Shown here one piece after another: positions 21,556 to 22,662 of a stretch of 32,000 nt of DNA. The position numbers were made by a program, and so were the translations under genes. This DNA is from Mycobacterium montefiorense (GTDB lineage Bacteria > Actinomycetota > Actinomycetes > Mycobacteriales > Mycobacteriaceae). The notes below the pieces were generated by a model. The model was not told where the DNA came from. It made no database searches and saw only the letters and a program-made list of their open reading frames with translations. Each line of letters starts with the position of its first letter. The stretch's first letter is position 1. The stretch spans positions 682,084 to 714,083 of the forward strand of contig NZ_JACKVL010000013.1 of the NCBI RefSeq assembly GCF_025823255.1, given 5' to 3'.

Positions 21556-22662
21556 TGGGCGCGCCTTATGCCTAGGCCCGTACCGGGCACGATGTCGGAG
21601 CCTTTGCGCGCCGCGGCCGCCGCGGCCGCGGCGGCCGCGACTCGCCCGGGCATGCTGATCGAGGGCGAAGACGGCGTTGTGGCCACGCTCGCCGAAAGCG
21701 GGCTCACCGCGGCGGTGGACACCCCGGCCGCCGCGGGAATTGCGGGCGCCGCCGACGTGGCATTGGCCCAGGTTGCAGGCACGGACAACGGACCAATCGA
21801 GGCCGCCCGTCCCGCGCTCGCGCTGACCAAGCGGCCAGCTGCCGGCGCCGCGCCCTGACCAGCTGCCGCCGGACTGACGGCGGATGCAAGCACCGGATTC
21901 ATTGCCGGAACGCTGCCGGCAGTGCTCGGCAACGCGTTGGCGCCGGTCATGGCCTGGCCGATCATCTGATTCATGGGTTCCATCGCGAATTGGGCCGGCG
22001 TCGAGAGCAGCTGCAGCTGCGTCATCGGGTCCTTCAGTTGACTCATCACCGCCTCTGACATCCACTCGAACAACTGCTCAGGGAAGGAAACGAACCTCCC
22101 CTCGGGGACGCTGAACAGGGTCAGTGGCGGTGTGCTGAACGGTGTCTGCGTGGCGCCGGCCGCCGCCGTGGCGACGTCATAGCCGGTCATGGCCGCGACA
22201 TCTTGGGCCCACATCTCCATGTATAAGGCTCTCCATGTATAAGGCCTCGGTCGCCGCGATTGCCGGGGTGTTTTGACCCAAGATGTTGGTCGCGATCAAA
22301 GTCGCCAGCAGGTCGCGGTTGGCCTCGATGACCGGTGGGGGCACCGTAGCGGCAAACGCCGCTTCGAACGCGCTGGCCGATAATGTCGTCTGGAGGGCCA
22401 CAGCCGCTGCGTTTTCTGAGGTCGCAGTTAACCACAGCACGTACGGAGCGGCAGCCGTCGCCATCATGGTCGCCGCCGGGCCCTTCCAGGGCCCGCTGGT
22501 CAGCGACGTCACGGTCGCACGGAAGGAGCTTGCCGTGTACTCCAACTCGGCGGCCACCACGGACCACGCTGCTGCCGCCGCCAACATCGGCCCCGAGTGC
22601 GCTCCCGCATACATGCGCGCGGAATTTATTTCCGGCGGCAACAGTCCGTAGTCCAGCGACAT
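21552..22662 (-). pseudogene. PPE-family gene disrupted by a 16-bp tandem duplication
   Basis: ORF 22177-22728 gives [20 protein letters not shown]...GPWKG...[11 protein letters not shown] and then goes out of frame. ORF 21552-22220 resumes with [14 protein letters not shown]... Removing one 16-bp copy yields a continuous 364-aa PPE. A GGGGAGG Shine-Dalgarno precedes ATG 22662. Confidence 0.8.
22214..22245. repeat. Perfect 16-bp direct tandem duplication (TCTCCATGTATAAGGC x2)
   Basis: Read directly: 22214-22229 equals 22230-22245. It lies exactly at the codons for EALYMEMW of the PPE gene. Confidence 0.95.

Follow-up and report, generated by a model that had tools for sequence, protein, structure and literature searches.

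Can a PPE gene of Mycobacterium montefiorense that carries a perfect 16-bp tandem duplication within its coding sequence be turned on and off by changing the number of copies, or has it simply been lost? The gene lies next to pdxS in a stretch of 32,000 nucleotides from contig NZ_JACKVL010000013.1 (positions 682,084 to 714,083; hereafter the window), which belongs to the type-strain lineage (ATCC BAA-256) of this fish pathogen. The original prediction, made from the letters of the window, regarded the duplication as a probably real and recent mutation that could also act as a reversible switch for the PPE gene and, via an overlapping stop and start codon, for the PE-hydrolase gene downstream. 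We confirm that the duplication is real and consider it most probable, at roughly 85%, that it is a fixed, lineage-specific loss-of-function mutation, which would make the gene a PPE pseudogene confined to this strain, set in a pe/ppe cluster that is decaying, rather than a regulatory device.

A private duplication in the type-strain lineage

The 16-mer TCTCCATGTATAAGGC is present twice, abutting and identical, at 22214-22229 and 22230-22245. Both Tandem Repeats Finder (period 16, 2.0 copies, 100% matches, 0 indels) and a separate script recovered the back-to-back arrangement that had been described. The array measures exactly 32 bp, to which the flanking bases add nothing. On the minus strand the site reads GAG-(GCCTTATACATGGAGA)x2-TGTGGGCC, in the wider context of ...GCGACCGAG GCCTTATACATGGAGA GCCTTATACATGGAGA TGTGGGCCCAAGATG.... 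The duplication is not due to chance: a script that scanned the window for perfect tandem duplications with units of 12-40 bp found this one alone, composition-matched shuffles yield 0.01 of them per window, and for a 16-bp unit ~4e-5 is expected analytically. Features of the locus are collected in the table.

Features of the pdxS-adjacent pe/ppe cluster (positions refer to the window)
Feature	Position	Strand	Remarks
pdxS, divergent housekeeping neighbour	22933..23868	+	anchor used to fetch the locus from other strains and species
PPE pseudogene, N-terminal fragment	22177..22662	-	144 native and 17 aberrant residues, TGA; Pfam PPE positions 1-142 of 165
Repeat copy 1 in coding direction (GCCTTATACATGGAGA)	22230..22245	-	native PPE frame still kept (A-L-Y-M-E)
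Repeat copy 2 in coding direction	22214..22229	-	extra 16 nt, +1 frame shift; missing in strains BS and NJB14197
PPE pseudogene, C-terminal fragment, original frame	21552..22220	-	remainder of helix 5, linker, PPE-SVP C-terminal region with GPLSVPATW
ATGA overlap, PPE stop / PE-hydrolase start	21552..21555	-	read directly: ...CGCGCCCAATGACATTTGTG...
PE + PE-PPE serine hydrolase (GYSQS), 414 aa	20311..21555	-	ended early by in-frame TAA 20311-20313
Cut-off remnant of the PE-hydrolase GSIGMPLPP tail	20098..20310	-	same frame past the TAA; 66-codon open reading frame
Intact paralogous PPE-SVP gene, 358 aa	18670..19746	-	67% identical to the repaired PPE; one motif copy (ATEAEHTEMWAQD); 2.4 kb away
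Second PE + PE-PPE hydrolase paralogue	17369..18654	-	frame split near 17887-17929: 296-aa open reading frame, remainder in another frame

One possible objection is that the second copy was introduced by assembly or polishing and that the true genome has one. We found no direct support for such an artefact; assembly of PE/PPE regions is difficult in general, and in other strains many contigs end within this cluster. Against it, at least two other read sets, assembled de novo, gave the same 32 bp: over 7.0-8.1 kb the Logan assemblies of DRR361296 and SRR30899518 match the window at 100% identity, both repeat copies included. DRR361296 represents the type strain ATCC BAA-256, obtained from a green moray and sequenced on the Illumina platform at ~396x (PMC9670993). 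Given that independent assemblies repeat the 32 bp and that the array fits well inside a single 150-bp read, an artefact can be excluded for practical purposes, and the mutation is real, as had been proposed. Two copies are on record in the window and in 3/3 indexed assemblies of the type-strain lineage; three Logan contigs encode the two PPE fragments in the form given here, and the type-strain allele of the PE-hydrolase occurs on exactly these three indexed contigs.

Other strains and species point to the ancestral state of the site. The salamander isolates BS (GCA_003112775.1, L084) and NJB14197 (GCA_024342025.1, L086) have exactly one copy, GCCTTGTACATGGAGA, which differs from the window by a synonymous TTG/TTA change, TTA being found in both window copies. 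Identity between these isolates and the window is ~95% over the 5' two-thirds of the PPE gene and ~98% in the housekeeping flank, and two partial proteins (P0138 and P0148, from at least six contigs) are read continuously across the duplication site. Seven other genomes, among them M. triplex, M. scrofulaceum E3039, several Mycobacterium sp. and two metagenome-assembled genomes, share the order pdxS - PPE - PE-hydrolase. Seven syntenic PPE open reading frames (ORFs) of 355-363 aa are uninterrupted and one further ORF is cut by a contig end; a single copy of the MWAQD motif is seen in six of the seven syntenic PPE genes, the motif pattern not being found in the remaining one (L003). Because the salamander strains and the syntenic genes elsewhere have one copy in an open frame, we infer that one copy is ancestral and that the duplication belongs to the type-strain lineage alone.

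The comparison with orthologues, which the original prediction had suggested, therefore leaves its reading of the duplication as a real mutation standing. Its description of the event as recent does not follow from the perfect identity of the copies, as fewer than one substitution is expected in 32 bp at a lineage divergence of 2-3%; the one limit that these sequences set on the age of the duplication is that it came after the salamander lineage had split off. Searches with the repaired PPE, from which one copy had been removed, returned no near-identical full-length match among proteins, which is a clustering effect that places conspecific fragments under a PE-PPE representative. A contig scan with the same query returned syntenic genes from other species only, at no more than 64% identity and with M. 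montefiorense itself not among them, and a metagenome scan for the one-copy or two-copy site gave no matches.

Effects on the PPE protein and possible consequences for the PE-hydrolase

Read with two copies, the gene starts at the ATG at 22662, is native through Glu144 and continues with 17 aberrant residues to the TGA at 22177-22179; the 13 codons to the stop that had been counted earlier are in fact 17 after Glu144. When one copy is deleted, ORF 22177-22662 joins ORF 21552-22220 in a single 364-aa frame that ends at 21552, so that the repair behaves as foreseen. PPE proteins are defined by an N-terminal domain of ~165-180 residues with Pro-Pro-Glu near residues 7-10, and the repaired protein belongs to this family by its N-terminal PPE domain (PF00823, E = 5.9e-60, 202 bits, profile positions 1-163 of 165). 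It is also a member of the PPE-SVP subfamily, which is characterised by a Gxx-SVP-xxW motif (PF12484, 31.1 bits at a cut-off of 23, residues 275-347, motif GPLSVPATW), and matches homologue P0001 (364 aa) from end to end with 80% identity and 100% coverage.

In the window, the frame across the PPE domain is interrupted, the N-terminal fragment leaving it after profile position 142. The duplication site aligns to ATEALYAEMWAQD of PPE15 in the PE8-PPE15-EspG5 complex (PDB 5xfs_B, E = 2.9e-53), in the final helix of that domain. The reported break within the conserved helix, YxEMWAQD, lies in helix 5. The truncated product is without the last ~20 PPE-domain positions and without the entire C-terminal SVP region. 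Such a protein would be unable to form a normal PE/PPE-EspG-competent substrate, which is why we regard the gene as a pseudogene.

The consequences might extend to the downstream gene. Stop and start codons overlap on the same strand at 21552-21555 (CAATGACAT), as was originally noted, and this arrangement has the structure of a translationally coupled PPE / PE-hydrolase operon. Strain BS has an identical ATGA junction, and the six other syntenic genomes with a visible junction show a spacer of ~8-17 nt instead of the overlap. In the two-copy state, ribosomes would now halt ~620 nt short of the PE-hydrolase start, so that translational coupling, if any, is probably lost; polarity of the truncated PPE on the PE-hydrolase is possible. 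A promoter and terminator scan of 20000-23000 yielded nothing above background.

The PE-hydrolase itself contains a PE domain (PF00934, 89.7 bits), a PF08237 domain (172 bits, profile positions 4-226 of 228) and the GYSQS form of the G-x-S-x-G/S pentapeptide, and is thereby a member of the PE-PPE domain serine hydrolases. Its length is 414 aa in the window vs 477 aa in the salamander strains: the TAA that ends it falls within the GSIGMPLPP repeat tail and reads CCG TAA GGC, where sister repeats read CCG GTA GGC. The same repeat region shows a 24-nt indel difference relative to strain BS. Coding tandem repeats are found in the C-terminal tails of both PE-hydrolases of the window, at 17400-17548 (54 bp x 2.8) and at 20132-20402 (24/48/72-bp units), and the copy number of the latter array differs between strains.

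Fixed lesion or reversible switch

We propose that a 16-bp segment of the pdxS-adjacent PPE-SVP gene was duplicated in tandem in the type-strain lineage and that the extra 16 nt cost the gene its frame after Glu144 in helix 5, translation ending 17 codons on. A single duplication event, by either replication template slippage or end-joining repair, would be the simplest origin. Inspection of the duplication junction revealed no microhomology, and the GAG...GAG pair would predict 15 bp, not 16. A hairpin-driven origin is not supported, given that one-copy and two-copy DNA fold no better than shuffled controls (z = -1.4 and +0.2). Programmed frameshifting was considered and rejected, given that there is no slippery sequence at the site and that the one-copy orthologues keep an open frame.

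The duplication would be one of several inactivating lesions in the pe/ppe cluster and its neighbourhood, which fits relaxed selection or gene decay. In the second PE-hydrolase, the 296-aa ORF spans just positions 1-105 of the 228 in the hydrolase-domain profile, and the frame-split stretch is identical in the DRR361296 assembly. Compared with strain BS, the window has a 1-nt insertion at ~27592-27596 that breaks a spermidine-synthase-like gene, 526 aa long elsewhere in the species, into ORFs 26373-27722 and 27559-28569; the SRR30899518 Logan assembly shows 407 + 131 aa. The salamander strains (BS and the NJB series) have a 1-nt insertion of their own near PPE codon 300, outside any repeat (GACCGCGGGTG vs GGCCG-GGGTG; L084 ~3790, corresponding to window ~21724), and this insertion fuses the PPE frame with the PE-hydrolase in an ORF of more than 700 aa (L084 of BS; P0140 in NJB strains). 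The salamander lineage has in this way disrupted or remodelled the same PPE independently, and no fully intact copy of this PPE was found among the M. montefiorense strains on record. Given these nearby lesions and the different disruption in the sister lineage, the pattern fits decay, not contingency. The intact PPE-SVP paralogue at 18670-19746 may provide redundancy.

One alternative is that the duplication acts as a phase-variation switch, in which the two-copy OFF state slips to a one-copy ON state at a useful frequency and toggles the PPE and, via ATGA, the PE-hydrolase. RecA-independent deletion can act on perfect direct repeats of two 16-bp copies, one copy restores the PPE frame exactly, and copy number would hence, in structural terms, move the gene in and out of frame as at a contingency locus. 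Tandem-repeat copy-number phase variation has been reported in M. tuberculosis, where promoter repeats of 54-57 bp vary at 1e-2 to 1e-3 per chromosome (PMC12817950). What speaks against a switch is that the two states were not seen together in one strain or clone: the window and all three indexed assemblies of the lineage, which are consensus assemblies, show the OFF state alone. The repaired one-copy allele of the lineage is not on record either, although this is a weak negative, since an exact look-up missed not only the repaired 364-aa protein but also the 222-aa fragment that is present on three contigs. Neither is the change recurrent, as two copies are confined to the type-strain lineage: the salamander strains and six of the seven syntenic genes have one, and no other strain or species compared shows two. 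Moreover, the PE-hydrolase that would be co-switched has a premature stop of its own, the second PE-hydrolase and the spermidine-synthase-like gene are broken too, and in the sister lineage this PPE was inactivated or altered by a 1-nt insertion that lies in no repeat. Two 16-bp copies should also slip far less than long, multi-copy variable-number tandem repeats. The switch that was originally put forward is therefore mechanistically possible, yet unsupported, and we judge it very unlikely. The more specific scenario in which collapse to one copy in a minority of cells gives back full-length PPE-SVP and coupled PE-hydrolase translation, as bet-hedging of ESX-secreted surface proteins in fish infection, strikes us as no likelier.

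Could both halves of the gene be made and be functional, as a truncated PPE domain and a 222-aa C-terminal fragment? The two ORFs overlap by 44 nt, and the ATG at 22220-22218, inside copy 2, opens the original frame with the GGAG of copy 1 ~10 nt upstream. However, PE pairing and ESX-dependent export need the PPE domain, as in PE/PPE-EspG complexes (e.g. PDB 5xfs, 4kxr), and the C-terminal fragment is without it; the N-terminal fragment in turn is without the end of helix 5, and none of the homologues from the search has a split architecture, which renders a functional split gene highly improbable. An even smaller chance attaches to the duplication being the footprint of a mobile element, that is, a target-site duplication left after excision of an insertion sequence. 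The copies do abut without junction microhomology, but no remnant of an insertion sequence lies between or beside them and none of the fetched loci carries such an element at this site. Target duplications of 16 bp are unusual for the insertion-sequence families of bacteria, in which elements seldom excise so as to leave both copies.

Several points weigh against the preferred explanation, a fixed loss of function. The ATG and GGAG at the start of the 222-aa ORF, read from the sequence, make some internal initiation of the C-terminal fragment possible, and the pseudogene call is drawn from the DNA sequence. All two-copy data sets appear to come from one strain, in which a mutation acquired in culture ahead of its distribution is not separable from one of the eel isolate, and consensus assemblies leave room for a minority one-copy subpopulation.

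Two additional observations concern the surroundings. In strain BS (L084 1-2010 vs window 17000-20100), the second PPE / PE-hydrolase pair is organised otherwise, with nothing more of the PPE than short remnants (93 and 125 aa), which indicates that the cluster has been rearranged between strains. Between the divergent pdxS and PPE genes, the AT-rich intergenic region contains at 22704-22736 an imperfect tandem repeat with a 14-bp unit (CAAATAACAAAGGC x 2.3), which may be promoter-associated.

Relation to known systems and meaning of the probable loss

Among known systems, the locus resembles the strain-specific frameshift pseudogenes of mycobacterial pe/ppe families, in that a small indel in a PPE gene differs between conspecific strains and that the gene resides in a paralogue-rich, rearranging pe/ppe cluster with other lesions close by. 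It is unlike them in the type of lesion, which here is a clean 16-bp tandem duplication without microhomology and not a homopolymer slip, an insertion of an insertion sequence or a recombination between paralogues. With repeat-copy phase variation, as in the promoter repeats of M. tuberculosis (PMC12817950) and in simple-sequence contingency loci, it shares that a change in copy number would toggle the frame and that the gene belongs to a surface or secreted antigen family. In contrast to those systems, there are two 16-bp copies, one observed state, no recurrence and decayed neighbours; high-frequency reversible switching, their defining trait, is known from those systems only. Finally, the repaired protein is similar to the ESX-5 substrates PE8-PPE15 and PE25-PPE41 (PDB 5xfs, 4kxr, 2g38) in having a full PPE domain, the ATEALY.EMWAQD helix of PPE15 and an SVP-type C-terminus. 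The order of genes is PPE followed by PE-hydrolase here and PE followed by PPE there, and the PPE of the window is truncated in helix 5.

For annotation, the split PPE of the M. montefiorense type strain should be treated as a true pseudogene and not as a sequencing error, its repair being the deletion of 16 nt. The length difference of 16 bp also offers a simple marker for polymerase chain reaction by which the Japanese salamander isolates can be told apart from the type-strain lineage. Should the site turn out to switch, it would add one small case to a known principle, repeat-copy phase variation. The finding is otherwise an ordinary one and carries little weight beyond annotation and the marking of lineages. 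With regard to the biology of the species, the pdxS-adjacent PPE / PE-hydrolase cluster is undergoing independent dismantling in the eel and salamander lineages, which is of modest use for comparative work on host adaptation and on pe/ppe turnover in the M. simiae complex.
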